Assembly: GCF_051903065.1 (NCBI RefSeq)
Contig: NZ_CP178438.1
Reading direction: 5' to 3' (one strand)
DNA length: 64,000 nucleotides
From: Escherichia coli
GTDB lineage: Bacteria > Pseudomonadota > Gammaproteobacteria > Enterobacterales > Enterobacteriaceae
This document shows positions 34,511-57,796 of this stretch, piece by piece; position 1 is the first letter of the stretch, and every line of letters starts with the position of its first letter. Under the pieces are notes generated by a model. The model was not told the DNA's origin. It saw only the letters and a list, made by a program, of their open reading frames with translations, and ran no database searches. The position numbers and the translations under genes are program-made.

Positions 34511-35971
34511 TTACTTCACGGAATATTTCGCCACGGTCGCTTTCGCACCATGCGCTAATAAAAACAAGTACGCTTCCGTCACTTTTGCAGTAAACAAGCT
34601 ATTGTCTGGCAAATCATCACCAAAGATCGCCTTAATCGCCAGCAATGACTGGACGCGCGCTTTCCCTTCGGCACTACTTTGTACAGCCTTCTGAATAACA
34701 GGTAACAGTGGGTCACTGATTTCAATCGGATTTCCCTGTTCATCAACACCACCGACATAACGCATCCAACCCGCGACGCCCAGCGCCAGCAGATCGAACT
34801 TGCTGTCATGCGCCAGATGCCAGCGAACAGAATCCAACATCCGCTGTGGCAATTTCTGGCTGCCATCCATCGCAATCTGCCAGGTTCGATGGCGTAACGC
34901 CGGGTTGCTATAGCGTGCAATTAATCGGTTAGCGTAATCTTGCAAATCAACGCCCTGCACTTTCAGCGTCGGCGCTTGTTCCTGCAACATCAAGCCATAC
35001 GCCGCATGACGATAATGTTCATCTTCCATACAGTCATTAATGTGCTGATATCCGGCAAGATAACCCAGATACGCCAGGAATGAATGACTGCCGTTGAGCA
35101 TGCGCAACTTCATCTCTTCATAAGGCAGTACATCGCTAACCAGTTCTGCTCCCGCTTTTTCCCATTCCGGACGTCCGGCAACAAAATTATCTTCGATTAC
35201 CCACTGGCGGAAAGGTTCACAGGCAACGCCAGCAGGATCGCGCACACCGGTAAGTTGTTCGATTTTCGCCAGCGTATCCTCTGTCACTGCGGGCACAATA
35301 CGGTCCACCATTGTTGATGGGAAAGTCACGTTATCTTCGATCCATTGTGCCAGTTTTACATCAACGGCTTGCGCGTAGGAAGTGACAACGTCACGCATAA
35401 CATGACCGTTTTCTGGCATGTTGTCACATGACATGACGGTAAATGCGGGAAGTCCTGCCGCTTTACGGCGAGCCAGCGCCTCAACAATCACCCCTGTTGC
35501 TGTTTTCGGCTGGTGGGGATTTTGCACGTCGGCAACGACCATCGGGTGATCGAGCATTAACTGTCCGGTCGCCGGAGAGTGGAAATACCCTTTTTCGGTG
35601 ATTGTCAGAGAGACAATCGCGATTTGTGGTTCACACATCGCAGCCAACACGGTTTCTAAGCCATCTATCTGTACGTGCAAGGCTTTTTTAACGACGCCAA
35701 CGACGCGAGCCGTCCACGCATCGGCCGACATTTCCGCAACGGTATAAAGATTATCTTGCTGTTGTAAATCGGCAATTTGCTGTTCGCCACCGATTAAGTT
35801 GACCTCATAATATCCCCAGTCACTGAAATGTTCTGTAGCAAGAATATCGGCATACACGCCCTGATGCGCACGGTGAAATGCACCAAAGCCTAAATGAACA
35901 ATTCTTGGGGCCAGGTTATTACGATCATAAACAGGGAGTGTCGCTTTTGCTGATAACAAATTATTTCCCAT
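34511..35971 (-). CDS. ydfI: Mannitol-dehydrogenase-family oxidoreductase
   Basis: 486-aa ORF with N-terminal Rossmann fold. Confidence 0.85.
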
Positions 35972-36059: not shown

Positions 36060-37343
36060 TTAAAGACTTCTGGAAGGTTGCGCAGCTCTTACAACACGCG
36101 GTTGATCTTCCGCAGCGTCTTCCAGCGCACTTAAATCACGGTCTTTCACTTCTGGCATTTTCAGCGCAGAGATTAAACCAATCACTGAATATGCCATGAT
36201 CATAATGGCGATTGGATACCAGGATTCCGTCATGGTGCAGAAAATACCCGCCAGGATAGGACCAAAACCGGAAGCGATAAGACCACCAATTTCTTTAGAA
36301 ATAGCCATCCGGGTAAAGCGGTTTTTACAGCCGAACATTTCTGCCATGGTAATGTTTTCCAGAGCAAATAATCCCAGCACCGCACAGTTATGAATCACAA
36401 TCAGTGCAACCATAATGGTGCTCGGGGCATAGCTTTTATCTACGATGATAGAAAGCATTGGCCATGCCAGCACAATCGCGGAGGTATTCATAATAATATA
36501 CGGGATCCGGCGACCAATTTTATCGGATAACCAACCAAGGAACGGAATGGTCATAAAGCCGAGAATCGAACTAATCATCAATGCATCTGTTGGAATTGCT
36601 TTGTTAAACAATAACGTCTGCACTAAATAGCCTGCAAGGAAAGTCTGAATTAACCCGGAGTTACCCGCCTGACCAAAACGCAGCCCTGTTGCCAGCCAGA
36701 AGGATTTGCTCTGGAACATGCTACCAGCAGGTGCAGGTTTTGCTGTCGGTTGGTTGCTGTCGTTAACCTTCTCAAAGACCGGGCTTTCTTTCAGATTCAT
36801 ACGCAACCAGATAGCAAAGACCATCACGACAACGCTCGCCAGGAACGGTATACGCCATCCCCACGCCAGCAGTTCCTCTTTACTGAGAATGAAGAACATA
36901 AAGGCCCAGATTGCCGTTGCGCTTAAGGTTCCGCAGTTAGTTCCCATAGCCACAAATGAGGAGATAATTCCGCGCTTACCTTTTGGCGCATATTCCGCCA
37001 GCATCGTACCGGCACCGGAAATTTCCGCACCTGCACCCAACCCCTGAATAATACGCAGCGTCACCAGCAAGATGGGTGCAAAAACACCAATCTGTGCATA
37101 GGTCGGTAACACACCAATTAAGGTGGTACAGATCCCCATCATGGTGATGGTAATAAAGAGCACTTTTTTACGCCCTATTCTGTCGCCCATTTTGCCGAAA
37201 ATAAATGCTCCGACAATACGCGCCACATAACCTGCACCGTAGGTTCCCATTGCCAGAATTAACGCCATTGCCGTTGATGATTCAGGAAAAAATATTTCAT
37301 GAAACACTAACGCTGCGCCGAGTGAATATAACTGGAAATCCAT
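36060..37343 (-). CDS. ydfJ: MFS metabolite:H+ symporter-family transporter, probably N-terminally truncated at the prophage junction
   Basis: 427-aa MFS ORF whose 5' end abuts an abrupt shift to AT-rich phage-like DNA at about 37345. Confidence 0.7.
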   Translation of the reverse strand: MDFQLYSLGAALVFHEIFFPESSTAMALILAMGTYGAGYVARIVGAFIFGKMGDRIGRKKVLFITITMMGICTTLIGVLPTYAQIGVFAPILLVTLRIIQGLGAGAEISGAGTMLAEYAPKGKRGIISSFVAMGTNCGTLSATAIWAFMFFILSKEELLAWGWRIPFLASVVVMVFAIWLRMNLKESPVFEKVNDSNQPTAKPAPAGSMFQSKSFWLATGLRFGQAGNSGLIQTFLAGYLVQTLLFNKAIPTDALMISSILGFMTIPFLGWLSDKIGRRIPYIIMNTSAIVLAWPMLSIIVDKSYAPSTIMVALIVIHNCAVLGLFALENITMAEMFGCKNRFTRMAISKEIGGLIASGFGPILAGIFCTMTESWYPIAIMIMAYSVIGLISALKMPEVKDRDLSALEDAAEDQPRVVRAAQPSRSL

Positions 37344-37946
37344 AATTCACAGGTGTTTTTTCCCATCCTGTGGTTTCCTTGGCGTTTTCTAGGTTTTTTC
37401 AGATAGTTGCATTTTTTAAAAAGCATCCTAAGTTCGATCTCAGTGTCTATCTGGGGCCTATTTCTGTCCCATATATGCCCCAAAAAAACTCCCCAACAGA
37501 TAAGTAGTTTTTTCATGGATTTATGCGTAAAATCAAGAACGGCTGGAAATCATTCAATACTCACACTATCGAAAAATTTACCAGCCAACCGCAGCACGTT
37601 CTTGCATAAGGCGTGTCTGCGTTTTTTCAACTATTCAGATACATCACTCCCATCACAGTCATTCCTCCGCATCAAAGGCATATAGGCTATATCACCTTGA
37701 TATTTTTCTTTTTCAGATAAAAACTGTTATCTATGTATACTTTTAAACCCAATCCGTGTAGAGTCTCTGCATAAGATAGTTTGCAGTTGCCGCTTCAGCT
37801 TGCGCCATAAACCGCCTGATTTTTGCTGCCACCTGCTAGCATTCCTGTATACCTGAAACGACAATGTTTATCTACGAACTTTAAAAACACCCAAGATAAA
37901 AATTGTCAACTATATCATATATAACACATTACTAATTCGAGGCTAT

Positions 37947-38060
37947 ATGAACAGCATACTGATAATCACTTCTCTCCTTATCATATTCAGCATTTTTAGT
38001 CATGCCCTAATAAAATTAGGGATTGGCATATCCAATAACCCAGACAAAACCGATGTATAA
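37947..38060 (+). CDS. Candidate small hydrophobic protein (37 aa)
   Basis: ATG...TAA encodes [37 protein letters not shown], a single predicted TM helix; no homology check possible here. Confidence 0.3.
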
Positions 38061-38128
38061 GTCAACATATCCTGAATCAGACATACAATATCGCAATGAA
38101 AATCAATAATATTTTAAGGAATATCTTC

Positions 38129-38362
38129 ATGAAATCAAAAGACACCCTAAAGTGGTTCCCTGCGCAGCTTCCTGAAGTAAGAATTATCCTAGGGGATGCT
38201 GTAGTGGAAGTAGCAAAACAGGGAAGACCTATTAATACCAGAACATTGCTTGATTACATTGAAGGAAACATAAAGAAAAAATCATGGCTGGATAACAAAG
38301 AATTATTACAAACAGCGATATCAGTTCTTAAAGACAACCAAAATTTAAATGGTAAAATGTAA
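38129..38362 (+). CDS. ydfK: Prophage cold-shock-induced protein YdfK
   Basis: 77 aa from MKSKDTLKWFPAQLPEVRIILGDAVVEVAK... Confidence 0.8.
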   Translation: MKSKDTLKWFPAQLPEVRIILGDAVVEVAKQGRPINTRTLLDYIEGNIKKKSWLDNKELLQTAISVLKDNQNLNGKM

Positions 38363-38679
38363 TATAATAAACTTACTTTTTTATCATTTTTCCACTTTAA
38401 CAACATTTTTCTCCACTTTTCCACGTCCAAACAACTTGAAATCTGGTTAAAATAACACGCAACACTATTCTTCTTCCTTGAGTCCGCCCGGAACTCGAAA
38501 AACAAACCGAGTTAAAGCCATTTTTCACAAAATCGATTTTGGGTCTCACCAAAAATTACGGGGTTGCATACGCATTCGTTTATTTTCGAACGTGTACATA
38601 CAAATATGCACAAAAATAATCATAATTATTTTCTGAGATGCATTATGATATGAACACCAATTTCGAATAGAGTCTCACT

Positions 38680-39270
38680 ATGTCTCGAATTTTTGCTTAC
38701 TGTCGGATATCAACGCTGGATCAGACCACCGAAAATCAACGCCGGGAAATCGAAAGTGCAGGTTTTAAAATCAAACCTCAGCAAATAATCGAAGAACACA
38801 TTAGCGGCTCAGCAGCAACCAGTGAGCGTCCTGGTTTTAACCGGTTGCTTGCTCGCCTGAAATGTGGTGATCAATTGATTGTGACAAAACTGGATCGCCT
38901 TGGTTGTAATGCAATGGATATCAGGAAAACAGTGGAACAACTGACCGAAACAGGTATCAGAGTGCATTGCTTAGCATTGGGTGGCATTGACCTGACCAGT
39001 CCAACAGGAAAAATGATGATGCAAGTAATTTCAGCAGTCGCTGAATTTGAACGAGACCTTTTACTTGAACGCACTCATTCCGGGATAGTAAGAGCCCGCG
39101 GCGCAGGGAAACGTTTTGGTCGACCACCTGTGTTAAATGAAGAACAGAAACAGGTGGTATTCGAACGAATTAAGTCAGGTGTAAGTATAAGTGCCATTGC
39201 CCGGGAATTCAAAACCTCGCGGCAAACCATTTTAAGAGCCAAAGCAAAACTTCAGACACCTGACATATAA
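38680..39270 (+). CDS. pinQ: Serine recombinase, DNA invertase (Pin/Gin/Hin family)
   Basis: 196-aa ORF with catalytic N-terminus [15 protein letters not shown] and C-terminal HTH. Confidence 0.9.
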
Positions 39271-39367
39271 AAAATAATCTCGGTGTGAGATGCTTTACGT
39301 GTTCCAAGCCCCCTTCCTTGCCGTAAATGGAAAGATACATCTAATTATAGAATTTATATGTTTTACC

Positions 39368-39943
39368 CTACGGCAGTGCTGGCCATTCAATATCCTGTGC
39401 AGTTGACGTATCAACACGGTTCAGCAATACCCGATACTTTTTCCATGCTTCCAGCAACGAGATTTCTTCCTCCGTTGCAATTTCCAGATCTGCAGCATCC
39501 TGAAGCGGCGCAATATGCTCACTGGCTACCTGCATCAGGTTGTTTTTTGTTTCTTCCGCCTCCCGGATCCGGAACAGTTTTTCTGCTTCCGTATCCTTCA
39601 CCCAGGCTGTGCCGTTCCACTTCTGAAACTCCCCTTCCGGCGATAACCAGGTAACATTTTCCGGTAACGGACCGAGTTCAGAAATAAATAACGCGTCGCC
39701 GGAAGCCACGTCATAGACGGTTTTTCCCCGATGATCTTCAACGAGATGCCACGATGCCTCATCACTGTTGAAAACAGCCACGAAGCCTGCCGGAATATCT
39801 GGCGGTGCAATATCGGTACTGTTTGCTGGCAGACCTGTATGAGGCGGAATATATGCGTCACCTTCACCAATAAATTCATTAGTTCCGGCCAGCAGATTAT
39901 AAATTTTTATGGTCTGTGGTTGTTCACTCATTCTGAATGCCAT
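39368..39943 (-). CDS. tfaQ: Tail fibre assembly protein
   Basis: 191-aa ORF of the lambda Tfa family, immediately downstream of stf. Confidence 0.85.
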
Positions 39944-41159
39944 TATGCAAGCCTCACAATATAGTTAAATGCGATGTTTTTGACGGTGTTTTCCGCGTTA
40001 CCAGCAGCGTTAACGGTGATGGTGTGTCCATGTGAACCAATCGCAACGGAGTGCGTATGAGCACCAATACCGACAGTATGTGCATGTGCGCCTGCGCTTG
40101 CAGCAGTGCCGGACAGCGAGTGGGTATGAGCACCATCTGATGATGTCTTCCCTGCATTACGAGTCTGGCCACTACCGCTTGTTGTGCTCATAATCCCCGC
40201 GCTTAGATTTGAAATCGCGGTATAACCATTAGGGAAAATGCTCGTGTTCGTGCCACCAAATGCACCGGAACTCTTGTGTTGGTGCGCACCGGCACTATTT
40301 GCAGTCCCGCTAATACTATGGGTATGCGCCCCGGTGTTATTCGTGGATTTGGTTCCGTAATCAAACGACGATGTGTTTTTCGTCCCCAAATCCGTACTGG
40401 ATGCGCTGGCGCTGTGGGTGTGCGATTTAATGCCGTCCTGTTCCTGAGACAATACGGCACGACCACTGGCGGGTTTGCCCTTAATCGTCCAGCCACGCAT
40501 ATCAGGGATCACGGCTGACGGATAAGCGGCTGCAAGTTTCGGGTATGCAGATTTGTCAAAAGTCTGCCCCTGCATCAGGGCATAGCCAGACGGAACGGTA
40601 TCTGATGGCCACGGGATTGGTGCGCCAGGCGGATAAAACTGCTCTGATGGCGTATAGAGTGAATAAACTGTACCGTCCGTTAACCCTTCCGGCTTATTAG
40701 CAGAATATGCTGGTGACGTATGAATCGTCACGCTGGCATTACTGGTATAATCCCATTGAATATTTACACCAGTCGCATAATTTCCGATTGCAACGTAAAT
40801 ATCGTAAGTATCACCAGATGTATTGACCCAGGCAAAATTTGTAAACCCTGTCGATGTGCGCTGCCATAAAGCACCAGTAATCCCCTTCGGATTACCATTA
40901 CCTGCACGCAAAACAAGTTCAGATATACCTGCCTGTTGAGGTGACCCCACGTTAAATCCCGCGCCACCAATCAACGTAATTGAAACAACAGAACTCGCCT
41001 GTGGCATGGTTACCGTTGCTAATTTGAACCAACCAGCACCACCGCTGAATGACATTGTTGTTGAGTTAAGCGTACCAATATCTTTCGGCGTCAGTGTTAT
41101 ATCCGCTGAAAGCGCCTTACCATTCACCTTACGGGCAGAAGGTACCCGACCATTCGCAT
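39943..41159 (-). pseudogene. stfQ: Side tail fibre protein, C-terminal portion only (5' end cut by the IS903-like element)
   Basis: Open frame runs without a stop from the IS boundary at 41159; Gly/Ser/Thr/His-rich repeats typical of Stf; nearest start (GTG) at 41127. Confidence 0.8.
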
Positions 41160-42216
41160 GGCTTTGTTGAATAAATCGAACTTTTGCTGAGTTGAAGGAT
41201 CAGATCACGTATCTTCCCGACAACGCAGACCGTTCCGTGGCAAAGCAAAAGTTCAAAATCACCAACTGGCCCACCTACAATAAAGCCCTCATCAACCGTG
41301 GCTCCATAACTTTCTGGCTGGATGATGAAGCTATTCAGGCCTGGTATGAGTCAGCAACACCTTCTTCACGAGGCAGACCTCAGCGCTATTCTGACCTTGC
41401 CATCACGACTGTGCTGGTCATTAAACGCGTATTCAGGCTGACCCTGCGCGCTGCGCAGGGCTTTATTGATTCCATTTTTTCTCTGATGAACGTTCCGCTA
41501 CGCTGCCCGGATTACAGCTGTGTCAGCAGGCGGGCAAAGTCGGTTAATGTCAGTTTCAAAACGCCCACCCGGGGTGAAATCGCACACCTGGTAATTGATT
41601 CCACCGGGCTGAAGGTCTTCGGTGAAGGCGAGTGGAAAGTCAAAAAGCATGGCCAGGAACGCCGCCGTATCTGGCGTAAGCTGCATCTCGCCGTTGACAG
41701 TAAAACACATGAAATCATCTGCGCTGACCTGTCGCTGAACAACGTTACGGACTCAGAGGCCTTCCCCGGGTTAATCCGGCAAACCCACCGGAAAATCAGG
41801 TCAGCCGCCGCCGATGGCGCTTACGATACCCGGCTATGTCACGATGAACTGCGGCGTAAGAAAATCAGCGCGCTTATCCCTCCCCGAAAAGGTGCGGGTT
41901 ACTGGCCCGGTGAATATGCAGACCGTAACCGTGCAGTGGCTAATCAGCGAATGACCGGGAGTAATGCGCGGTGGAAATGGACAACAGATTACAACCGTCG
42001 CTCGATAGCGGAAACGGCGATGTACCGGGTAAAACAGCTGTTCGGGGGTTCACTGACACTGCGTGACTACGATGGTCAGGTTGCAGAGGCTATGGCCCTG
42101 GTACGAGCGCTGAACAAAATGACGAAAGCAGGTATGCCTGAAAGCGTGCGTATTGCCTGAAAACACAACCCGCTACGGGGGAGACTTACCCGAAATCTGA
42201 TTTATTCAACAAAGCC
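41160..42216 (+). mobile_element. IS903-like element (IS5 family, IS903 group), 1057 bp
   Basis: Terminal inverted repeats GGCTTTGTTGAATAAATC at 41160-41177 and its reverse complement at 42199-42216; flanking 9-mers differ (CATTCGCAT versus TTTATGACC), so no target-site duplication. Confidence 0.85.
41192..42160 (+). CDS. IS903-group DDE transposase
   Basis: 322-aa ORF recognised as IS903/IS102-like transposase (…[42 protein letters not shown]…). Confidence 0.85.
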
Positions 42217-43317
42217 TTTATGACCTAAAAGAAGTTCGACAATATAAGGATCCGCCCCCATATCATTAAGCGTAGTGGAAAATGTGCGCCTGAAATCATG
42301 TATGCACCACAAGCCATTAGTATCATGACCAAGACACCTGCATATTCTGTTTGCAGCCCCTGTTATTGTCGCCCTTTGCAAAGCACAACCGACAACATAA
42401 CCGCGATTTTTTGTTTCTGCGTAAAGATTAACGATCCATTGTTTTATTCCGTCAGGAACAGGCCTTACTATAGCCTCCTTGTTTTTGCTGTGCTCTTTTG
42501 GGACTGTCCATACCCAGTTTTTTAAATCCCATTCGTCCCAGGTGGATAGCCTCGCCTCCTGCTGTCGGCAACCAAACACCAGGCAGATAACCATTATTCT
42601 TCGGTTATATATTGATGACAGAGTTAGCAAATTATTACCGTAAGCATAAGACCATACATCAGCGGTTTCATTGATATTAAGAACGCGATCCCTTATACCG
42701 GATGAGCGCCCGACATAACTTACGTTAATATCTCCAAAGGGATCGCACGCGATGTATTGCCTGACGCGACAAAAACGCAACGCCTGTTTGATATCAAGAA
42801 AAATTGCACCAGACATAACAGGCGCATTTTTTTTGATCCTGTCAAAGACGGTAAGCCATGTGTGTAATTTGCACTGTTCTATAGCCATATCACCGATATA
42901 GGGGAAGATATGCTTTTCAAATCGTTTTATTAAATATTCATGCTCTTTTCTGGCTGTTGTGGCGTGATTGTCGTACCAGTAAAACAGCGCATCCCTTACG
43001 GTCACTGGTTGCATAGTTTTTTCGGCAGCAAGTTTTATTTGCCTGCGGGGGTCCAGATTTTCAGCCAGCCATTCACGGCACTGATCACGCATGCGCCTGG
43101 CCGTTGCAAGAGACATGTCAGGATAGCGACCAAGTGTAAGCCATACCGGAGGGGATTCCCTGCCACCAAGACGATAGTAAAAAACAAAGCTGATCCCCCC
43201 AACCATGCTTACACGCACAGACAACCCGCGCCCATCCGCTATTGTTTTTTGTTTGTCCTGCCGTTTTCCGACAAGACTCTTTAACAGTTTGTCACTGAGT
43301 TTGTTTTCAATAGCCAT
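42217..43317 (-). pseudogene. P4-like tyrosine integrase, 3'-truncated by the IS903-like element
   Basis: P4-type N-terminus and HDFRRTF...LLGH box, but the frame runs into the IS terminal repeat before the catalytic tyrosine would be encoded. Confidence 0.8.
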
Positions 43318-43335
43318 TAAAAGCCCTCAAGAGAT

Positions 43336-43389
43336 TTGCAATACACACCCATCCCGATCGCCAATTTGCAATACACATTGCAATACACA
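43336..43389. repeat. Three direct copies of TTGCAATACACA immediately upstream of the integrase start
   Basis: Copies at 43336-43347, 43366-43377 and 43378-43389 (last two in tandem); candidate arm-type recombinase or regulator binding sites. Confidence 0.6.
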
Positions 43390-43465
43390 AAACCGCGAAA
43401 AACTGGAAGGGTGATGAACGGTCATCAAAAGCATGGAAAACGACATTCCAGACGCAGCAAGGGTT

Positions 43466-46446
<2,981 letters not shown>

Positions 46447-46472
<26 letters not shown>

Positions 46473-46992
46473 TCAGCAACCCCGGTATCAGTTCATCCAG
46501 CGCGGCTGCTTTGTTCATGGCTTTGATGATATCCCGTTTCAGGAAATCAACATGTCGGTTTTCCAGTTCCGGAAAACGCCGCTGCACCGACAGGGGGATC
46601 CCGTCGAGAATACTGGCAATTTCACCTGCGATCCGCGACAGCACGAAAGTACAGAATGCGGTTTCCACCACTTCAGCGGAGTCTCTGGCATTTTTCAGCT
46701 CCTGTGCGTCGGCCTGCGCACGCGTAAGTCGATGGCGTTCGTACTCAATAGTCCCTGGCTGGAGATCTGTCTCGCTGGCCTGCCGCAGTTCTTCAACTTC
46801 CCGGCGCAGCTTTTCGTTCTCAATTTCAGCATCCCTTTCGGCATACCATCTTATAACGGCGGCAGAGTCATAAAGCACCTCATTACCCTTGCCACCGCCT
46901 CGCAGAACGGGCATTCCCTGTTCCTGCCAGTTCTGAATGGTACGGATACTCGCACCGAAAATGTCAGCCAGCTGCTTTTTGTTGACTTCCAT
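46447..46992 (-). CDS. nohA: Terminase small subunit (lambda Nu1 homologue)
   Basis: 181-aa ORF MEVNKKQLADIFGASIRTIQNWQEQGMPVLRGGGKGNEVLYD... matching lambda Nu1; symbol assumes equivalence with Qin nohA. Confidence 0.85.
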
Positions 46993-47169
46993 TGTTCATT
47001 CCACGGCCAAAAACAGAGAAAGGAAACGACAGAGGCCCAAAAGCTCGTTTTCAGCACCTGTCGTTTCCTTTCTTTTCAGAGGGTATTTTAAATAAAAACA
47101 TCAAGTTACGACGAAGAAGAACGGAAACGCCTTAAACCGGAAAATTTTCATAAATAGCGAAAACCCGCG

Positions 47170-47181
47170 AGGTCGCCGCCC
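47170..47181 (-). other. cosN cohesive-end site (lambda-type 12-nt GGGCGGCGACCT)
   Basis: Reverse complement of AGGTCGCCGCCC; 190 bp upstream of the Nu1 start exactly as in lambda, with cosB-like sequence in between. Confidence 0.85.
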
Positions 47182-47380
47182 CGTAACCTGTCGGATCGCC
47201 GGAAAGGACCCGCAAAATGATAATAATTATCATCTGCATGTCACAACGTGCATCTACGCCATCAAACCACGTCAAATAATCAATTATGACGCAGATATCG
47301 TATTAATTGATCTGCATCAACTTAACGTAAAAACAACTTCAGACAATACAAATCAGCGACACTGAATACGGGACAACCTC

Positions 47381-47614
47381 ATGTCAACGAAGAACAGAAC
47401 CCGCAGAACAACAACCCGCAACATCCGCTTTCCTAACCAAATGATTGAACAAATTAACATCGCTCTTGAGCAAAAAGGGTCCGGGAATTTCTCAGCCTGG
47501 GTCATTGAAGCCTGCCGCCGGAGACTGTGCTCAGAAAAAAGAGTTTCTTCTGAAGCAAACAAAGAAAAGAGTGACATTACTGAATTGCTCAGAAAACAGG
47601 TCAGACCAGATTGA
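47381..47614 (+). CDS. ynfO: Prophage protein YnfO
   Basis: 77-aa ORF on the far side of cos; K-12 Qin gene order nohA-ynfO-ydfO. Confidence 0.7.
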   Translation: MSTKNRTRRTTTRNIRFPNQMIEQINIALEQKGSGNFSAWVIEACRRRLCSEKRVSSEANKEKSDITELLRKQVRPD

Positions 47615-47671
47615 AGCAATTTAGATAATCGTGCAGACTACGCCCCCTCATATCACATGGAAGGTTTATCT

Positions 47672-48082
47672 ATGGATCAGGTAGTCATTTTTAAACAAAT
47701 ATTTGATAAAGTTCGAAACGATTTAAACTATCAATGGTTTTATTCTGAGCTAAAACGTCACAATGTCTCACATTACATTTACTATTTAGCCACAGAGAAT
47801 GTTCATATTGTATTAAAAAATGATAATACAGTGTTATTAAAGGGCCTAAAAAACATTGTGTCTGTCAAATTTTCAAAGGATAGGCATCTTATAGAAACGA
47901 CCTCTAATAAGCTGAAATCCAGAGAGATCACATTTCAGGAATACAGAAGAAACCTTGCTAAAGCAGGAGTTTTTCGGTGGGTTACAAATATCCACGAACA
48001 AAAAAGATATTACTATACCTTTGATAATTCATTACTATTTACTGAAAGCATCCAGAAAACTACACAGATCTTACCACGCTAA
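47672..48082 (+). CDS. ydfO: Prophage protein YdfO (DUF1398)
   Basis: Start placed at [11 protein letters not shown] (136 aa); the ORF track allows 47657. Confidence 0.75.
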
Positions 48083-48233
48083 ACCATAACGTCCGGCTTC
48101 TCTCACTCCTGAGCCGGACTGCATTGGTTTAATAAAAACCATCAACAATTGTGATTTAGATATTCGGAACCATTCAAATATAACAAAACCCCGTAAAAAC
48201 GAGGTTTATGGATAAATTTTATTATTGAATACA

Positions 48234-48407
48234 TCAGATTAAATTAATCTTGACATCATAGCTTTCAAGACCCGTCATTTTTTCCCGTGCGGTAAACTGA
48301 ATACTGGTAACTTCTTTCCCGGTCTTTTTCTTAAGTTCAATAATTTTTTTTGTTATATATTCAGAAATATCTGCTTCTGCTTTTGTTTTTAAGTTTTCAA
48401 TATTCAT
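48234..48407 (-). CDS. gnsB: GnsB (suppressor of secG/fabA phenotypes, GnsA/GnsB family)
   Basis: Read from DNA: MNIENLKTKAEADISEYITKKIIELKKKTGKEVTSIQFTAREKMTGLESYDVKINLI (57 aa). Confidence 0.8.
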   Translation of the reverse strand: MNIENLKTKAEADISEYITKKIIELKKKTGKEVTSIQFTAREKMTGLESYDVKINLI

Positions 48408-48578
48408 CATTTCCTCTTTTAGTCTGTTATGACTTTCCAGTTACACAGTAAGTCGATTATATGGTGCAAACGTGTAAAAGATAAGATGAAACATCGCAAT
48501 AATCAACATACGATAGTCTAAATTTTACACAAACAGACAAAGAGAATTTTCCTGAATTATCAATGCAATAGCATCAAA

Positions 48579-48734
48579 TCAACTCAAGAGCCTTATTGCT
48601 GCTTCCAGAATTTCTTCTGAAGTAACATGTCGATCCGCGGCTACATAAATGACTTTATGATCTCCGGTCAGAGATGGAAACCCTGCGGCCATTACAGTAA
48701 GGTGTGTTTTTTCGCCATTTGGATATTCACGCAT
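48579..48734 (-). CDS. ynfN: Small prophage protein YnfN
   Basis: 51 aa from MREYPNGEKTHLTVMAAGFPSLTG...; start choice based on my recollection of a 51-aa product, with alternative upstream starts available. Confidence 0.55.
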   Translation of the reverse strand: MREYPNGEKTHLTVMAAGFPSLTGDHKVIYVAADRHVTSEEILEAAIRLLS

Positions 48735-49080
48735 GATGGTGTTAACTCCAGTCATCGCTGGCACTACCACTGCTGGTTCAGAGTTAAAAAAAACTATGAT
48801 TTTTTTCATGATGTTACCGTAGTATGTGAGTATCCATCGAATAGACACCAAGCAAAAAAGCTCCCGAAGGAGCCTTCATTTTCACTTTTTTAAATCCAAC
48901 GACAGACGGCTGGCATTTAAGTATTGTGAAATATTATCAAATGTAATCATCATTGATTTACAAAAGATACATTTTGCCCCGAAAGGATTCATGTCAGAAA
49001 CATCAAAAGATGATGTTCTATACTGGGAACCATGACAACACGGGCATCTAAAGTGAATATGGTTTGTAATATTGTCTACC

Positions 49081-49293
49081 TCAAAGCGCCACTACATGAA
49101 CAGCGGCAGGACCTTTAGGTCCGTTCTCAATACCAAATTCAACTTCCTGATTCTCAGTTAATGTTTTGAAATCGTTGCTCTGAATTGCTGAGAAATGGAC
49201 AAACACATCTTTGCTGCCATCTTTCGGCGTGATGAAACCAAAACCTTTTTCAGGGTTAAACCATTTCACTAAACCAGTCATTTTGTTAGACAT
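49081..49293 (-). CDS. cspI: Cold shock protein CspI
   Basis: 70-aa [44 protein letters not shown]... Confidence 0.9.
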
Positions 49294-49655
49294 AATTATT
49301 ACCTTTTGAAGAAATTAGCCCTTGGGCAGAATGGTCCGAAAAAAAATATCAGAGAGAAAAACCAACAAGGAAATCTCAAGAGGTACAAATAATAAAATTA
49401 TAACAATGACTGCTTCAGATAAATTTGTAACAAACCAGAACACCATTAACGCATGATTAACCACCCATAGCAAGGATTACTTTTGTAAAGAAAAACACAG
49501 CAATGAAAGAATAGCTTTATTTATTAATAAAACGTGTCATTCTGATTAAGACCTTTTATCTTACCCTTAAGATTTCAGGAATTTTGGCTCATGGAAGAGT
49601 CCTTTTTATTTAAATTTTACATTCCGCGATGTAAATGTTCCGATTTAATATTACC

Positions 49656-50679
<1,024 letters not shown>

Positions 50680-50683
<4 letters not shown>

Positions 50684-50991
50684 AGATATTTATGATGAGG
50701 ACGCTCGTGCTTATTGGCAGGATTTTCAATCTTAAAGGAGTACTGATGCTGCAGATAAGACTCAACTTTTTCTGACAATTTTTCTGCTACTTCCAGGAAG
50801 ACTTGCCGGACGCTCCTTCTGGCTGCTGCCTCATAAAACTCCAGCGCAGCTCCTTCAACACGGTCCATGGCGACATCCAGGTCAAAAATTTCACCGTCAA
50901 AGCGTTCTTTGTCCTGTAAGGCTACAGTTACCGTAACTTTATTCTCAAAATTACGGACTCCTTTCACAACCAGTTCATAGTCTTGAGTCAT
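50680..50991 (-). CDS. ydfR: Prophage protein YdfR (DUF1327)
   Basis: 103-aa ORF between holin and endolysin. Confidence 0.75.
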
Positions 50992-50995
50992 TGGA

Positions 50996-51211
50996 TTACT
51001 CTCCTCTCGCAGCCTTACGCCTGTCTTCTTTAATCTTGAAATAAAGATTTGTCAGATACGTCAGCAGGCAAAAAACCAGGCTACCCAGCACACCGATTGC
51101 AGCCCACTGTGACGGAGTTACTTTATCGAGTAACTGCAATGCCCAGAAACCAGCATTACCCGCCGATGTGCCATAGGCAACACCTGTTGTTAACTTATCC
51201 ATTGATTTCAT
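50996..51211 (-). CDS. essQ: Class II holin (phage 21 S-like)
   Basis: 71 aa from [14 protein letters not shown]... with two TM segments; first gene of the lysis cassette. Confidence 0.8.
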
Positions 51212-51429
51212 ATCCTCACCCCGATGTACACGGATGGTGCAATATGTTTGAAAAGATCGGAGTCTACGGGGTAGTTTTGACAGCACACGTTGTTCTCAAC
51301 GGCGCTAAAAAACATACACATTAAAAATGTGGGTAATTATTTTGAAAGAAAATCATATATAAAATAATAATACGAGAAATGTTTTCATATTTAGTGTACT
51401 GTATACGGCCATTTATACAGGAAATGCCT

Positions 51430-51600
51430 ATGTCAGAACGTAAAGACTCAAAATCACGCCGTAATTATCTCGTTAAATGTTCCTGCCCAAACTGCACCCA
51501 AGAGTCAGAACACAGTTTTTCAAGAGTACAAAAAGGTGCCCTTTTGATCTGCCCTCATTGCAACAAAGTATTCCAGACAAATCTTAAAGCTGTAGCCTGA
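51430..51600 (+). CDS. ynfU: Small zinc-ribbon protein (56 aa)
   Basis: MSERKDSKSRRNYLVKCSCPNCTQESEHSFSRVQKGALLICPHCNKVFQTNLKAVA with CxCPxC...CPxC; symbol from memory, moderate certainty. Confidence 0.55.
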   Translation: MSERKDSKSRRNYLVKCSCPNCTQESEHSFSRVQKGALLICPHCNKVFQTNLKAVA

Positions 51601-51963
51601 TTGATTTTATTAGTAACAAGTATTTTTTATATTTTAATAATATATTTAAAGCAGATAATAAAAAACCCGCCTGAGCGGGTTTGAGATTGTGGTGCTTTTT
51701 GTGGGAGTCATCCACTTACGCACTTTGTTTTGCGATGCCAGCAGTTAGCTTCTGCTGTGAAACTATTCATGCAGCAAACCTGCACTTCACCACAATGGTT
51801 AGCATACTTTTCCTGATTAAGATTTTGCCAAATATGCTGGCCATTGTTTCATGTATTGGACCTCCTTACTTTTTATTAAAGAGATCCAATATTCACTACT
51901 CTGTCCGTATCTCTACTCAGGCATCAGCCTTCTTCGTTATCGTATACAGACGAGCGATGAATT

Positions 51964-52179
51964 TTAATCAGTAATGATGACATTTACTGCTGCAGGACCT
52001 TTAGCACCACTCTCTATAGAGAAGGTAACCTTTTGACCTTCAAATAAGGTTCGATAATTATCATTCTGAATCGCAGAAAAATGCACAAACACATCTTTAC
52101 TACCATCAACAGGAGAAATAAAGCCGAAACCTTTATCAGCGTTAAACCATTTTACTAAACCAGTCATTTTATTTGACAT
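51964..52179 (-). CDS. cspB: Cold shock protein CspB
   Basis: 71-aa [44 protein letters not shown]... Confidence 0.9.
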
Positions 52180-52489
52180 TCTACATTCCTTAACTTGAGC
52201 CTTTCGGCATAAATGGTTTGCATAACAGAAACGACTTCGTACTTAATTGGAGAGACTCAAAGAAGGAATAAGTGAATAACACCTGAAATGAGAACTGCTT
52301 TAGTAAACTACTTCGTATATCGTCTGTTCTTCAAACCGACGCAGTCATTAACTCATAGTTGAACATATGAAGCAATGTTTATTTTAGACATCCAGCCACC
52401 TTCAATCCTATCAAAAAAGTAGTTTTCTCCAGGAACGTGTGTATGGTGCACCAGGTTATCAGTATTAAGGAGTTTTTCTGTCCCCTAAA

Positions 52490-52690
52490 ATGACAGGAAT
52501 TGTCAAAAACTTTGACGGCAAAAGCGGCAAGGGTCTTATCACCCCATCCGATGGTCGTATCGATGTCCAGCTTCATGTTTCAGCGCTCAATCTCCGCGAT
52601 GCAGAAGAAATTACCACCGGATTACGCGTGGAATTTTACCGGATAAATGGTCTGCGTGGCCCTTCAGCTGCCAATGTTTACCTTTCATGA
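52490..52690 (+). CDS. cspF: Cold shock-like protein CspF
   Basis: 66-aa divergent CSD-like ORF ([30 protein letters not shown]...) opposite cspB. Confidence 0.8.
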
Positions 52691-53111
52691 GCTATATTAA
52701 AGCTTTAATTTCAGGCCCCATCGGATCACACATGGAGAGTTTTTATGAATAACCCCGTCTGTCTTGATGACTGGTTGATTGGCTTTAAAATCTTATGCTG
52801 TACTTTGGCCGTAATAGCTCTGCTAATAATATAATAAGCAGACTCATTGTGTTTAGGGACATTGTACTGGAAGAAAACATTTTAAACATCAGGCAAATAA
52901 CCAAGTCACCAGCTAAATAATAAGTTAACAGACATGAGTCCCGGGATGAGATTCAACATTACCATTGCCCCATTTAAAGCACAAAACCCGCTCATCAGCG
53001 GGTTTTCTACTTTTTCTTAACGTCGGGTATACAAAGCCCATCGTTGAAAAAATTTTATCCATATTTTTTGAAAAATGCAAACATCATGTCGCCATCTTCA
53101 GCAAAAATCAT

Positions 53112-53864
53112 TTATCTCGTCACCTTCCTCAATTGCGCTTCCGCGTATGCTTCTTCCTGCCAGCACTTTGTTACCAGTTTACCAATGACGTCCGCATACC
53201 CCTTATACCACTGATAATCGGTCAGGTCTGGTACCAGCTTCTGGACATGACGTCGTGCCAGCGTGGTCGGTAAACGACTAAACCGGTTTCCATTACAACG
53301 CCCACAAATCTTATATACCGGTACGCCATGAAACCGGGTTCTTTTTTCATCCAGAACAATCCCTTTACCCTTACACCCTCTGCACGCTGTGCTGGCTTCG
53401 CCCTTACCATGGCAATGCTGACATAGTTCCTTCACCCATTCTTCCTTGATTACAGATTCCCCGCGTCTGTAGTGTTTCACCACTTCGCGCAATACATTAT
53501 AAAATCCCGTACCTGAACAATGCTCACAGCGAGCCTTACTTGCCGCAGACCTGGAGTAATCAGCAAAGGCAAAACTCACGAGGTAAGGAATAATCTGTAA
53601 CCGGATTTCTTCACTCAATTTGTTCAATGTCGGGTTATCCAGTGCCATCGCGTAATTTAGCAGGCCTTCAATCGCAAACTGAGGGTCCTGAACACCAACT
53701 TTTGCCAGAAATAAGGCCAACCCAAGTGGTGCTTTCGACTGCACCATCCCCTGCGCTGCCATTACATCCGTAATTGTTAAACAACCGGTGCCTGTCGCTG
53801 GAGCGTCATCGCTCAATTTTGGAGATTTTGGGGAGTAATATTTTGGTAAGGCTTCAAGGTTCAT
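53112..53864 (-). CDS. quuQ: Late-gene antiterminator Q homologue
   Basis: 250 aa from MNLEALPKYY... with Cys-rich zinc-binding region (CEHCSGTG...CQHCHGKG...CRGCKGKG). Confidence 0.8.
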   Translation of the reverse strand: MNLEALPKYYSPKSPKLSDDAPATGTGCLTITDVMAAQGMVQSKAPLGLALFLAKVGVQDPQFAIEGLLNYAMALDNPTLNKLSEEIRLQIIPYLVSFAFADYSRSAASKARCEHCSGTGFYNVLREVVKHYRRGESVIKEEWVKELCQHCHGKGEASTACRGCKGKGIVLDEKRTRFHGVPVYKICGRCNGNRFSRLPTTLARRHVQKLVPDLTDYQWYKGYADVIGKLVTKCWQEEAYAEAQLRKVTR

Positions 53865-53877
53865 GCTCGTTCTCCAC

Positions 53878-54966
53878 TTACGCCAGTACGCCAATTGCCA
53901 GCGCGCGATCGATAAAACGAAATATCAGCTCCAGTTGGGAGCCATACTTATCTTCAAATGCCACTGTATCCGTATGCAGCTCGTTGTGATGCTTTCTGCA
54001 CAAAGGCAACACAAAGAGATCATGTGCTTTTGTTCCCATTCCGCCCTGCCCGTGACCAATCAGATGATGCGGATCGTCGGCTGGCATACCGCAGCAAGCA
54101 CACGGCTGTGTCTTAACCCAACGTGTGTATTTCTCCTTAACCCAGCGGCGACGTTTAGGCAGCTTCATGAAAGATTCCGGAGACTCTGGATCAACGGTGA
54201 TGCTTACCACCGTCTTTTCCTGTGGTGATTTTTGTTGCTGGTGGGCGTAAGGCAACGGTGCAAGATTTTTTGTGCGTTGTTTCAATATGCTGGTGGCGGT
54301 CTGCTCTCCCGGTACGATGTCGCTTTCGCGGTACACCGAGCAGATTTTTTCCGCTGGTAATCCCAGCGAACGACGCGATACAGCCTCAGGTAGTGCATCC
54401 ACCACCTGATTGCAGACCGCCCACCAGGATAATTCAGCCAAAGATAATTCCCGCTCCTGCGTACCGCTTATTGCGTGACGGATGACGTCAATCACCCATG
54501 CTGTCAGATTTTGTTGAGCAAGCAGCTCCAGTGATTCCGATGTCTGGTCACGCAGTTGGTTGTCGCAGTGCCAGCACAACACCATTGCGCCGGTACCATA
54601 ACGGTGAATGACTGTTTCAGTGTGATGGTAATCGCCATTAGGCCACTGGCAGGATGTAACATGACGTAATAGCCAGTCGGACAATGCGCCAACGCCGCCA
54701 GCAGCACGAATCACCCGTTCGTTACTAAAAAACGGCAGCAATGTTTTGTCTTCCGCCAGCGGCTGGCGAACGGCAGGAACGACTCCGGATGGCAGATTAC
54801 GCATGCTTTTTGGTTCCGGTTCCACCAGCACTCGAGGATTATGAAATATCTGTATGGATTCACGGCCCGGCTTAAGGACCACCAGCCCAAGCTCAGGCAC
54901 CAGAACAGGTCTAAGTAATACCCGCACGTTACCTCCAGATCCGTTGCTGGAAAGTGCGGGACGCAC
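53878..54966 (-). CDS. ydfU: Prophage protein YdfU (DUF968)
   Basis: 362-aa ORF with C-terminal Cys/His cluster (CACCGMPADDPHHLIGHG...CRKHHNELH); true start may be internal. Confidence 0.75.
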   Translation of the reverse strand: MRPALSSNGSGGNVRVLLRPVLVPELGLVVLKPGRESIQIFHNPRVLVEPEPKSMRNLPSGVVPAVRQPLAEDKTLLPFFSNERVIRAAGGVGALSDWLLRHVTSCQWPNGDYHHTETVIHRYGTGAMVLCWHCDNQLRDQTSESLELLAQQNLTAWVIDVIRHAISGTQERELSLAELSWWAVCNQVVDALPEAVSRRSLGLPAEKICSVYRESDIVPGEQTATSILKQRTKNLAPLPYAHQQQKSPQEKTVVSITVDPESPESFMKLPKRRRWVKEKYTRWVKTQPCACCGMPADDPHHLIGHGQGGMGTKAHDLFVLPLCRKHHNELHTDTVAFEDKYGSQLELIFRFIDRALAIGVLA

Positions 54967-55207
54967 GTGGTGGGCGTTCGGAATAAGGCAGCCTGACAGA
55001 GATTATCCAGTGCCGATAGTCGAGACTGAGAGCTTTCTTAACCTCGAACCCGCGCCTGCGGTAAGAATGAATCAGCCATTCGGCCTGTTCTGCAGTGCAT
55101 GGAGGGTGCTGGAACCATTCAGACTTGAATGCGTGAGAATACCGCCCGTGCGTGCAGGCAAGAACGGGCGAATTATCAGAATTGTAATATTTTGCGTTGC
55201 GTGCCAT
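54929..55207 (-). CDS. Hypothetical prophage protein (92 aa)
   Basis: ORF MARNAKYYNSDNSPVLACTHGRYSHAFKSEWFQHPPCTAEQAEWLIH... between rem and ydfU; overlaps the annotated ydfU 5' end, so one of the two starts is probably wrong. Confidence 0.35.
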   Translation of the reverse strand: MARNAKYYNSDNSPVLACTHGRYSHAFKSEWFQHPPCTAEQAEWLIHSYRRRGFEVKKALSLDYRHWIISVRLPYSERPPRASRTFQQRIWR

Positions 55208-55273
55208 CGGTTTTCTCCGGTGGCACGGTGTTACTCAGCGGGAGTTCAGCCCCGCGCAAGATTGTAGATGAGT

Positions 55274-55525
55274 TTATTCTCCTGAAAAAGCAGAAAAGCC
55301 AGCTTTTATTCCGATCTCTTTCAATGCCTGTAATGAAGTGACAAACTCACCTTCGCGCAAGATAAATCCGTCCGTGACCCGAGCATCCACAAAATTAATT
55401 AACGCAGCCCCATTCTTTCGCAAACACATAATGCGGTAATGACTAACAAGATTTCCATTTTCAACGCACACAGCATAGAGGCCATCTTCACAAAAAATTT
55501 TACGCAGTTCTTCGATGTTCATCAT
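55274..55525 (-). CDS. rem: Prophage protein Rem
   Basis: 83-aa ORF MMNIEELRKIFCEDGLYAVCVENGNLVSHYRIM... Confidence 0.8.
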   Translation of the reverse strand: MMNIEELRKIFCEDGLYAVCVENGNLVSHYRIMCLRKNGAALINFVDARVTDGFILREGEFVTSLQALKEIGIKAGFSAFSGE

Positions 55526-55654
55526 CAGAATCCTTCCGGATAATTAGCTCTCCCCTTTAAGGGACCATCCCTCTTATCCCTGCGCGCTACTTAAGTATTT
55601 TTGATTCTATTCCGGCACCGTCCAGAACTTCAAACGCGTTGAAAATAAAAACAA

Positions 55655-55680
55655 AAACCCGCCGAAGCGGGTTAAGTGCG
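55655..55680 (-). terminator. Rho-independent terminator / 3' fold of the hokD transcript
   Basis: Minus-strand AACCCGCTTCGGCGGGTT followed by TTTTGTTTTTATTTT. Confidence 0.65.
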
Positions 55681-55741
55681 GGTGCGTTGAGGATGCCTGC
55701 CACATCAGAGGTGGCGAGGGATTTCTCCCCCGCCGGGTCTC

Positions 55742-55897
55742 TTACTCCTCAGGTTCGTAAGCTGTGAAGACAGCGACCTCCGTCTGGCCGGTTCGGATTC
55801 GTACCTCGCAGAGGTCTTTCCTCGTTACCAGTGCCGTCACTATGACGGTTAAACAGATGACGATCAGGGCGATTAACATCGCCTTTTGCTGCTTCAT
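55742..55897 (-). CDS. hokD: Hok-family type I toxin (51 aa)
   Basis: Read from DNA: MKQQKAMLIALIVICLTVIVTALVTRKDLCEVRIRTGQTEVAVFTAYEPEE. Confidence 0.85.
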   Translation of the reverse strand: MKQQKAMLIALIVICLTVIVTALVTRKDLCEVRIRTGQTEVAVFTAYEPEE

Positions 55898-55968
55898 AGC
55901 CTGCTTCTCCTGTCAACGCAAAGCAGAAGTGTCACCTTCGGTGCGAAACAGAGATGTCATGCTTTGGT

Positions 55969-56256
55969 TCAGAGAATGCGTTTGACCGCCTCGCTATATA
56001 CTTCCGAGCGTTCTCTTTTCCCAACAGAAATCACGAAAACGACAACTTTCTCGTCTATAACCTGGTATACAAGGCGATAGCCTGAAGACCGGAGCTTAAT
56101 CTTGTAACAATCAGGCATACCACGGAGCTTGTTTGCTTCAATCCGGGGTGACTCAAGTACTTCAACCAGCTTCTTTTTCAACTGTTCACGTACCGTCGAG
56201 CCCAGCTTTCGCCATTCCTTTAGTGCCCGCTCGTCAAAATCCAGAAAATACGCCAT
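55969..56256 (-). CDS. relE: Type II toxin RelE (ribosome-dependent mRNA interferase)
   Basis: 95-aa ORF MAYFLDFDERALKEWRKLGSTVREQLKKKLVEVLESPRIE... Confidence 0.9.
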   Translation of the reverse strand: MAYFLDFDERALKEWRKLGSTVREQLKKKLVEVLESPRIEANKLRGMPDCYKIKLRSSGYRLVYQVIDEKVVVFVISVGKRERSEVYSEAVKRIL

Positions 56257-56495
56257 CAGAGTTCATCCAGCGTCACACGTACTGGCTTAGGATTACGAAG
56301 CCGTTCTTTCACTATCTCCACAAGTTCAGCATCTTCATCACTCAGGAGTGTCTGTTTGAACGGCAAGCGTTCATTGTCAGCGATATACTCGAGCATGAGA
56401 CGAAGCGCTTCAGAAGGAGTTACACCCATTTTTTCAAGCGCGGCGTAAGAACGCGCTTTAAGTTCATCGTCAATACGCAGGTTAATGCTACCCAT
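56256..56495 (-). CDS. relB: Type II antitoxin RelB
   Basis: 79-aa ORF MGSINLRIDDELKARSYAALEKMGVTPSEALRLM..., start overlapping the relE region as in relBE. Confidence 0.9.
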   Translation of the reverse strand: MGSINLRIDDELKARSYAALEKMGVTPSEALRLMLEYIADNERLPFKQTLLSDEDAELVEIVKERLRNPKPVRVTLDEL

Positions 56496-56499
56496 GTCT

Positions 56500-56535
56500 T
56501 ACACCTCTTGTAATTACAAATGTCATTACAAGTAT
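56500..56535 (-). promoter_or_regulatory. relBE promoter/operator (relO) inverted hexad repeats
   Basis: CTTGTAATTACAAATGTCATTACAAG contains palindromic TTGTAAT/ATTACAA elements immediately upstream of relB. Confidence 0.6.
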
Positions 56536-56825
56536 CGCACTACAACATGCTTAGGGCAAGTCACGAAGGAAGTCAGAAAGTAGTCGTAAGAACGGTGATC
56601 ACTGTCCGCTTTGTGCCAGGAGCAGCCATTGCTAAGTCCATCCTGTATTGTGCAGGTCAGCTCGTTTTTAAAGAGTCCGGCCATCATCTTACTGGTACAG
56701 ACACCATATACTTTGTGACGGTCAGGCTACATATGCACAACTCAACTTATTCATCTATTTTTTGCTTTAGCATGTCAGTGTTGCTTTCTCGTCGGCGGGT
56801 GAGCGGTGACCTGACCTGTCGATAA
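56520..56825 (+). CDS. ydfV: Prophage protein YdfV
   Basis: 101-aa ORF divergent from relB; K-12 gene order. Confidence 0.65.
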   Translation: MSLQVSHYNMLRASHEGSQKVVVRTVITVRFVPGAAIAKSILYCAGQLVFKESGHHLTGTDTIYFVTVRLHMHNSTYSSIFCFSMSVLLSRRRVSGDLTCR

Positions 56826-57027
56826 AGGAACGTAACACGTTTTATGCAACACCCGCATGCGGCAGAAAATTATTGCCGAACGTTTACCCCTGTCAACAAG
56901 CTTTACTTTCTGAGGCGCGCCAGCCCGCGAGGAAAACAATCTGAACATCAAACAATTAATGACACAAGAAATACGATTAAAGATTTTTTTGTACATGCCG
57001 ATAGTGCTTTTTTAAAAGGAGAAATCT

Positions 57028-57360
57028 ATGTCTGTCACAATTCAGGGAAATACCTCAACCGTTATTTCAAACAACTCCGCCCCGGAAGGAACATCAGAAA
57101 TAGCCAAAATCACAAGACAAATTCAGGTGCTGACTGAAAAGCTTGGGAAAATCTCATCGGAAGAGGGGATGACGACACAGCAGAAAAAAGAAATGGCTGC
57201 ATTGGTACAGAAGCAAATTGAAAGCCTCTGGGCTCAACTGGAGCAGTTGTTAAGGCAGCAGGCAGAGAAAAAGAATGAAGACGCGACAGTTCAGCCTGAT
57301 AAAAAAGAAGAGAAAAAAGACGATACAAATACCGCTGGCACCATTGATATTTACGTCTAA
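57028..57360 (+). CDS. flxA: FlxA (FliA-regulated protein)
   Basis: 110-aa ORF MSVTIQGNTSTVISNNSAPEGTSEIAKITRQIQVLTEKLGK... Confidence 0.85.
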   Translation: MSVTIQGNTSTVISNNSAPEGTSEIAKITRQIQVLTEKLGKISSEEGMTTQQKKEMAALVQKQIESLWAQLEQLLRQQAEKKNEDATVQPDKKEEKKDDTNTAGTIDIYV

Positions 57361-57373
57361 GTGACAGCCGTAT

Positions 57374-57402
57374 TGTGGCCCTCATCGGGCCACTTTTCGC
57401 CA
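57374..57402 (+). terminator. Candidate terminator after flxA
   Basis: TGGCCCTCATCGGGCCA stem followed by CTTTTCG. Confidence 0.45.
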
Positions 57403-57796
57403 TCAGCCTTTTCTTTAAAGACATATTATCTTTGTATCATTTCTGATAGTTAACATTACAAGATATAAGTAATGGACGCACTCCCAATTAGTCTATTTAA
57501 ATCGCCACGAGTTTAACTGACAACCCATGATCAATTATGAATTGCAACTATTTCTGTAGTCACTTTTGTGGGGACAGTCCACAAAACTGCCAACTTCCGC
57601 TTCTTGCTCTTAGCGGACATTAGCATAGGCTATTTACCATAACGCCTCATTACGCACACCGCCCAGACTGACTCAGCGCGTTTCTGGCATATCCCCGGTA
57701 AAACAAGTAACAAACCACCCGAAAATGAACACCAGAAACGCGACTTAAGAATCTACCCTATGAATGGATATGCACTCAACCGAATCGATCTTGGTT

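Follow-up and report, generated by a model that had tools for sequence, protein, structure and literature searches.

Phage lambda integrates by means of a tyrosine integrase with an arm-binding N-terminal domain, which acts on a short core flanked by long AT-rich arms. Its int gene adjoins attP, and the core is duplicated upon integration. Further prophages of Escherichia coli are located in the ends of genes, such as Rac in ttcA and e14 in icd. The attachment junction between prophage Qin and ydfJ is already known as well; it is annotated in strain K-12 and has been published. Qin was described as sitting at the 5' end of ydfJ, which has thereby lost its promoter and 28 codons, and was found in 48% of 638 strains (PMC6379469). 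While e14 rebuilds the interrupted end of icd, the ydfJ phage does not rebuild ydfJ (PMC6379469). The gene is the insertion site of Qin in strains W, K-12, B and Crooks (PMC3032704), and strain SE11 carries a lambda-like prophage between ydfJ and rspB (PMC2608844). In STEC and EPEC, the PPydfJ prophages occupy this gene. For these, Nakamura et al. 2021 (PMC8112680) determined attP experimentally, using PCR with the excised form as template, and the legend of their S7 Fig gives an '18- or 19-bp att sequence'. The same source reports excision seen by PCR in the O26:H11 strain 11368.

Here we analyzed a stretch of E. coli DNA of 64,000 nucleotides, in the following named the window. It contains a shortened ydfJ (here referred to as ydfJ') which is followed by AT-rich DNA. 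We are practically certain that the junction between both was formed by a Qin-type lambdoid prophage that inserted by tyrosine-integrase site-specific recombination into an attB within ydfJ. The value of the analysis lies mainly in the annotation, as the boundary of the prophage is fixed to the base by the core at 37335-37345. The features of the locus are listed in Table 1.

Table 1. Features at the junction between ydfJ and the prophage, with positions in the window
Feature	Position	Strand	Remarks
ydfI	34511..35971	-	directly downstream of ydfJ; gene order rspA-rspB-ydfJ-ydfI at the empty site
ydfJ'	36060..37343	-	427 codons from the 3' part of an MHS-family MFS transporter gene; from ORF list and translation
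extended imperfect att	37332..37349		CTGGAAATCCATAATTCA, 18 bp; attB and far junction have CTKGAAATCCATAAATTCA, 19 bp
att core	37335..37345		GAAATCCATAA, 11 bp, perfect; from three-way comparison; common to attB, window junction and far junction
attP arm, integrase-distal	37346..37621	+	non-coding; no trace in empty site; contiguous with integrase-proximal arm in free phages
Qin-type lambdoid prophage body	37346..64000		continues about 5.7 kb past the window via dicB, exo, xis and int to the second core
hairpin	37590..37627	+	CGCAGCACG...CGUGUCUGCG and U run; fold -15.2 kcal/mol
ynfT	37947-38060	+	annotation of relatives mapped onto window
ydfK	38129-38362	+	annotation of relatives mapped onto window
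pinQ, serine invertase	38680-39270	+	annotation of relatives; Pfam Resolvase and HTH_7

The product of ydfJ' was recognized as an MFS transporter (Pfam MFS_1, E=2.6e-37; Sugar_tr, E=6e-25). Stop codons close the frame upstream of its ATG, which is located at 37343-37341 on the minus strand and corresponds to the internal Met29 codon of the intact gene. The protein is equal to residues 29-455 of the intact YdfJ of 455 aa with 0 mismatches, and the absent residues 1-28 are MTIEKHERSTKDLVKAAVSGWLGTALEF. The MFS_1 profile is covered from position 2 by intact YdfJ and only from position 33 by YdfJ' of the window, whose N-terminal region, with the first transmembrane helix, is incomplete in comparison with a full-length MHS-family YdfJ. 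In the RefSeq records of relatives ydfJ is flagged as 'incomplete; missing N-terminus', and in most of them it is given as a pseudogene. The ORF of 427 aa annotated as 'ydfJ' is a gene fragment and not a short member of the family. A plausible start codon survives because the in-frame ATG of Met29 sits inside the att core. The G+C content, determined in 300-bp windows, was 0.49-0.51 over 36600-37199 and 0.40 at 37350-37649; further to the right it was 0.35 at 37800-38099 and 0.31 at 38100-38399. A first-pass annotation of the window had noticed an MFS frame that starts at 37343 with a short N-terminus and an abrupt shift to AT-rich DNA beyond it. Both observations hold, with 28 codons missing and a G+C content that falls from about 0.50 to 0.31-0.40.

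The empty site was obtained from the prophage-free genome NZ_CP137705. Here, rspA, rspB, ydfJ and ydfI are located on one strand, ydfJ encodes 455 aa and abuts rspB, and phage genes are absent. When this locus was compared with the window by BLAST, positions 32000-37349 matched at 98.7% and no match was found past 37349. The similarity to the empty site thus ends 6 bp beyond the start codon of ydfJ'.

Both junctions could be studied in strain ECNB21-M121, to which the window is 99.97% identical over 1-41159 and 43513-64000 (BLAST). The window itself stops near ydfA/dicA, approximately 5.7 kb before the position of the far junction. In ECNB21-M121 the far junction consists of the integrase gene, an arm, a second core, the missing 84 nt of ydfJ and rspB, in this order. 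The integrase (426 aa, with the domains Arm-DNA-bind_2 and Phage_integrase) ends 37 bp from the second core and has an excisionase gene beside it. A three-way comparison of the empty site (...aatataactgGAAATCCATAAattcaagcgc...), the window junction (...aatataactgGAAATCCATAAttcacaggtg...) and the far junction of ECNB21-M121 (...gtatgactcttGAAATCCATAAattcaagcgc...) delimited the perfect core. With its imperfect flanks the att sequence reads CTKGAAATCCATAA(A)TTCA and is 18 bp long in the window and attP, and 19 bp in attB. The core was directly observed as a direct repeat at both prophage ends in ECNB21-M121 and K-12, and it is present in a single copy within the window. Because the far end lies beyond the window, its duplication is shown in close relatives and not in the genome of the window itself. 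As described below, the prophage copy of the window is internally rearranged, so that changes at its far end are conceivable as well. The expected far end of this genome would lead from int/xis via ...CTCTTGAAATCCATAAATTCAAGCGC... to the 84-nt 5' end of ydfJ and to rspB.

These results are in agreement with the further claims of the first-pass annotation. It had placed the left boundary of the prophage at the 5' end of ydfJ, and indeed the phage arm starts at 37346, directly after the core. The attachment core had been predicted within about 100 bp of 37345, where it was found. An alignment with a prophage-free genome had been suggested as a check, and it recovered both the uninterrupted gene next to rspB and the core. 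The matching repeat anticipated near the other end of the prophage is present in the near-identical relatives, where it is followed by the missing part of ydfJ. The same short N-terminus in prophage-free genomes would have spoken against the proposal, but these genomes carry the longer YdfJ of 455 aa.

To characterize the phage side of the junction, attP was rebuilt as a sequence of 711 nt from the integrase-proximal arm, the core and the window from 37346 onward. It was found in one piece, with 98.3-99.3% identity, in the phages mEp460_ev081 (LR597641), PhiR42_1 (PV340562), Tritos (OV696610) and HannyBb (PP925841). All four share the contiguous order of integrase, arm, CTTGAAATCCATAATTCA and an arm of the window type, and in mEp460 attP is located between the integrase gene and a ydfK-like/Pin cassette. 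They are complete phage genomes of 45-49 kb, whereas the element of the window is integrated and internally deleted. The contiguity of attP in free phages confirms that the DNA from 37346 on belongs to the phage and that recombination of attP with attB gave rise to the junction. The arm 37346-37621 is common to several different prophages in ydfJ, in which the similarity is kept to about 37621-37625 and then diverges. This is as expected of an attP arm.

An ORF which is open, starts with an ATG and matches MFS_1 this well could also be taken for the natural full-length ydfJ, and the K-12 RefSeq record does give ydfJ as an ordinary CDS of 427 aa. The gene would then be uninterrupted and the AT-rich DNA would mark an intergenic region or the boundary of an island. 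However, 2009 of 5426 complete genomes are uninterrupted across the site and encode 455 aa, the other end of the prophage carries the 28 codons that ydfJ' lacks, and the MFS_1 profile is covered nearly from its beginning by the intact protein only. We regard this explanation as hardly tenable. The divergence of many genomes exactly at about 37621-37625 might in turn be taken as a sign that the true end of the prophage lies near 37621, with 37346-37621 being chromosomal DNA lost from some strains. Yet the empty site contains no trace of 37350-37621, the free phages carry 37346-37621 beside their integrase gene, and in genomes that share this segment ydfJ is likewise truncated and followed by a different prophage variant, so that such a boundary is extremely improbable.

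Rearrangements did occur in this prophage copy, which contains IS903B and an internal deletion of 17.7 kb. A junction formed by an illegitimate event, that is a deletion or an IS-mediated rearrangement that ended in ydfJ by chance, has nevertheless next to no probability. No IS end is present at 37346 and the breakpoint is identical to the base in K-12, ECNB21-M121, ES6, LCP30S3_I3 and N921. It also coincides with the core that is duplicated at the far end, and the fused arms correspond to the contiguous attP of the free phages.

Site-specific insertion almost certainly proceeded as follows. The attP of the phage (CTTGAAATCCATAATTCA) and attB (CTGGAAATCCATAAATTCA), the latter within codons 27-31 of ydfJ, were recombined by a tyrosine integrase inside their shared 11-bp core, by which the core was copied to both ends. 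The order of the strand-exchange steps we infer. The core copy of the window then represents the integrase-distal junction of a Qin-type lambdoid prophage (attR according to the lambda convention). The promoter, the ribosome-binding site and the first 28 codons of ydfJ were shifted by approximately 48 kb in intact phage copies and came to lie beside rspB. The phage type of ydfJ resembles lambda in its integrase domains, in its short core between long AT-rich arms, in the arrangement of int and attP and in the duplication of the core, but differs in core sequence and target.

Putative roles of the arm 37346-37621 were considered for two elements. The hairpin near its end could be a candidate terminator for transcripts that leave int across attP in the circular phage, and a role in retroregulation of int transcripts is also conceivable. 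Its fold is unexceptional (z = -1.64, no better than 12 of 200 shuffles), and it was not flagged by a simple terminator scan. The second element is the motif RATAGTTGM, of which the window arm has two copies, 37402-37410 (+) and 37627-37635 (-), while relatives show a single one on their integrase-proximal arm (L008, 2771-2785). Its presence on both arms of attP could make it a candidate for integrase arm-type sites. Its number in the window does not exceed chance, with 4 occurrences against 2.15 expected and 17 of 100 shuffles reaching 4, and the motifs are kept as putative sites. An Rfam scan from the core to ynfT found no family.

The hairpin is located in a block at approximately 37524-37622 that is conserved with phage HK97, where it lies directly downstream of the annotated sib site. 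The lambda core and the sib hairpin, both of which are annotated in HK97, are not conserved in the ydfJ arm, which shares only the block after sib. A sib-like element in the arm was therefore rejected.

The frequency of the occupied and the empty site was determined in 5426 complete E. coli genomes. A megablast search with window positions 36000-39000 resulted in distinct breakpoint classes. At least 80% of this query was covered in 1982 genomes, which carried ydfJ, ynfT, ydfK and pinQ. A second class, including NZ_CP137705, ended at query position 1350 (window 37349), and a third one near 1622-1626 (window 37621-37625). In the O157:H7 matches listed, the similarity extended approximately 130-280 bp past the core, with a DinI-like gene under the match and not ynfT-ydfK-pinQ. 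Intact attB was defined as at least 80% coverage of a 300-bp query centred on attB and was present in the 2009 genomes mentioned above. In the remaining matching genomes the query was split at positions 138-156, which is the core. These genomes matched the query from position 138 or 141 and up to position 156, respectively, with halves overlapping by 16-19 bp. Given 2009 intact sites, approximately 63% of the complete E. coli genomes are without an intact attB. This confirms that few attachment sites of lambdoid phages in E. coli are occupied as often as ydfJ.

The insertion probably has consequences for the genes downstream of the junction. It separates ydfI from rspAB, as well as from any promoter that precedes ydfJ, and thus may have a polar effect. 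On the minus strand, a sigma-70-like promoter was absent from the approximately 790 bp preceding 37343, and the nearest match on this strand was at 38138-38111. The sequence before the ATG of ydfJ' (cacctgtgaattATG) contained no obvious ribosome-binding site. Judged by these absent consensus signals, ydfJ' is probably silent and ydfI is probably left without any promoter formerly located upstream of ydfJ. This is in line with published data (PMC6379469).

Each of the five occupied genomes that were examined had an open ORF of ydfJ', and nearly all differences were synonymous. Alleles were compared between the window (36060-37343) and further loci, including L006 (3003-4286) and L001 (4061-5344). 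Pairs of alleles differed by 0-11 synonymous and 0-1 non-synonymous substitutions, and truncated and intact alleles were interleaved. The truncated ydfJ' of K-12 and the intact allele of FELIX_MS724 do not differ at any of the 1284 nt that they share. Substitution counts were therefore uninformative with respect to selection on ydfJ'; the pattern reflects repeated recent integration. That occupied and empty sites share alleles suggests that the phage integrated or was excised recently, or that recombination took place across the locus. As the core is in frame and truncated and intact alleles can be identical, excision of intact phage versions would restore a perfect row of rspAB, ydfJ and ydfI. 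We consider it very improbable, though, that the insertion acts as a reversible switch or that expression of the ORF of 427 aa still starts in the phage arm. A circulating phage that integrated repeatedly and recently would account for the open ORFs just as well.

The closest annotated relative of the element is Qin of K-12. In MG1655 the 'cryptic prophage Qin' is annotated at 1632277..1652745 (NC_000913.3), and the two cores were located at 1632277-1632287 and 1652746-1652756. The annotated Qin therefore runs from the first core copy to the base before the second one. Direct comparison showed the same boundary as in the window, with the same attB, an 11-bp core at the same base, a ydfJ' of 427 aa (b1543) and ynfT-ydfK-pinQ-tfaQ as the first genes. 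K-12 was 98.7% identical to the window over 33058-40640. The severed N-terminus of YdfJ, MTIEKHERSTKDLVKAAVSGWLGTALEFMDF..., is found in K-12 as ynfP (b4534, 36 aa), fused to phage sequence, and the gene at the integrase end is the pseudogene intQ. The copy in the window is less degraded than Qin of K-12. It has the additional regions 40640-46464 and 57981-62781 and keeps a partial long tail-fibre gene, the terminase, the N-terminal part of portal and genes of the replication region, which Qin of K-12 does not. On the other hand, IS903B and a foreign integrase fragment are absent from K-12.

The PPydfJ prophages are lambda-like and located in ydfJ as is the element of the window, and their att length of 18 or 19 bp matches, compared by length alone (PMC8112680, S7 Fig legend). 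As far as the PPydfJ prophages are described in that source, they differ by type III effector loci (nleG, nleC) and by their occurrence in tandem clusters (PMC8112680).

The prophage of ECNB21-M121 is a lambdoid prophage of 47.7 kb with head, tail, lysis, Q, dicA/dicC, exo, xis and int genes. Compared with it, the prophage of the window lacks 17.7 kb (41159/43513 versus L004 26035-43763). The deleted part contains the C-terminal part of portal, the protease, the capsid, all tail genes, J, lom and the N-terminal part of the tail fibre, so that the prophage of the window cannot make virions. This copy is defective and intermediate between an intact phage and the 20.5-kb Qin of K-12.

At the site of the deletion an IS903B of 1057 bp with the terminal repeats GGCTTTGTTGAATAAATCG is located at 41160-42216. 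It joins a truncated tail-fibre gene (ORF 39943-41127) to a truncated island integrase. The flanks of the IS differ (CATTCGCAT versus TTTATGACC), hence there is no 9-bp target duplication, and the arrangement is compatible with an IS-associated deletion. The junction of tail-fibre gene and IS903B was absent from all complete E. coli genomes searched.

The island integrase is a P4-type tyrosine integrase (42202-43317, minus strand) with the domains Arm-DNA-bind_3, Phage_int_M and Phage_integrase, and it adjoins the truncated portal gene. It is identical in 366 of 367 positions to an integrase of 413 aa from N921 and is cut by the IS after LLGHK. In N921 this integrase heads an intact island of 10.9 kb that splits the portal gene of the ydfJ prophage. 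The island encodes HTH, Bro-N, Icd-like, primase, SSB, major capsid, head decoration and small terminase proteins and contains no tail genes. It is flanked by the repeat CATA(C/A)ATCGCCTT, of which the window keeps the integrase-side copy at 43513-43525. Among the matches listed, the junction of integrase and portal (CATAMATCGCCTT) was present at 99.8% identity or more in at least 14 genomes. Judging from its gene content and position, the island looks like a phage-satellite-like element targeting the portal gene of the ydfJ prophage. A literature search returned no paper on a satellite-like island integrating into a prophage portal gene.

Further observations were made in the prophage body. 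The gene pinQ is located beside tfaQ and a tail-fibre C-terminus (38680-39943), which is the usual layout of an invertible tail-fibre cassette, and an Rfam IS009 match (220.9 bits) was found inside tfaQ at 39402-39600 on the minus strand. Two cspA-type thermoregulator 5' UTRs and a sok antitoxin RNA were found on the minus strand at 49054-49439, 51917-52340 and 59184-59355, as expected of Qin cargo such as cspI, cspB and hokD.

Outside of the prophage, an IS1A interrupts an ESPR-type autotransporter gene in ECNB21-M121 at the position that corresponds to the start of the window (15-712 and flanks). A partial IS200/IS605 tnpA together with an InsQ/TnpB RNA-guided endonuclease gene is present between tam and lsrG at 10176-11817, mapped from the 99.97% identical ECNB21-M121. 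Additionally, a match of Rfam STnc560 (281.9 bits) overlaps the mgtS/mgtT small-protein locus (27792-28005, minus strand, and 27799-27902), of which mgtT is annotated as frameshifted in ECNB21-M121.
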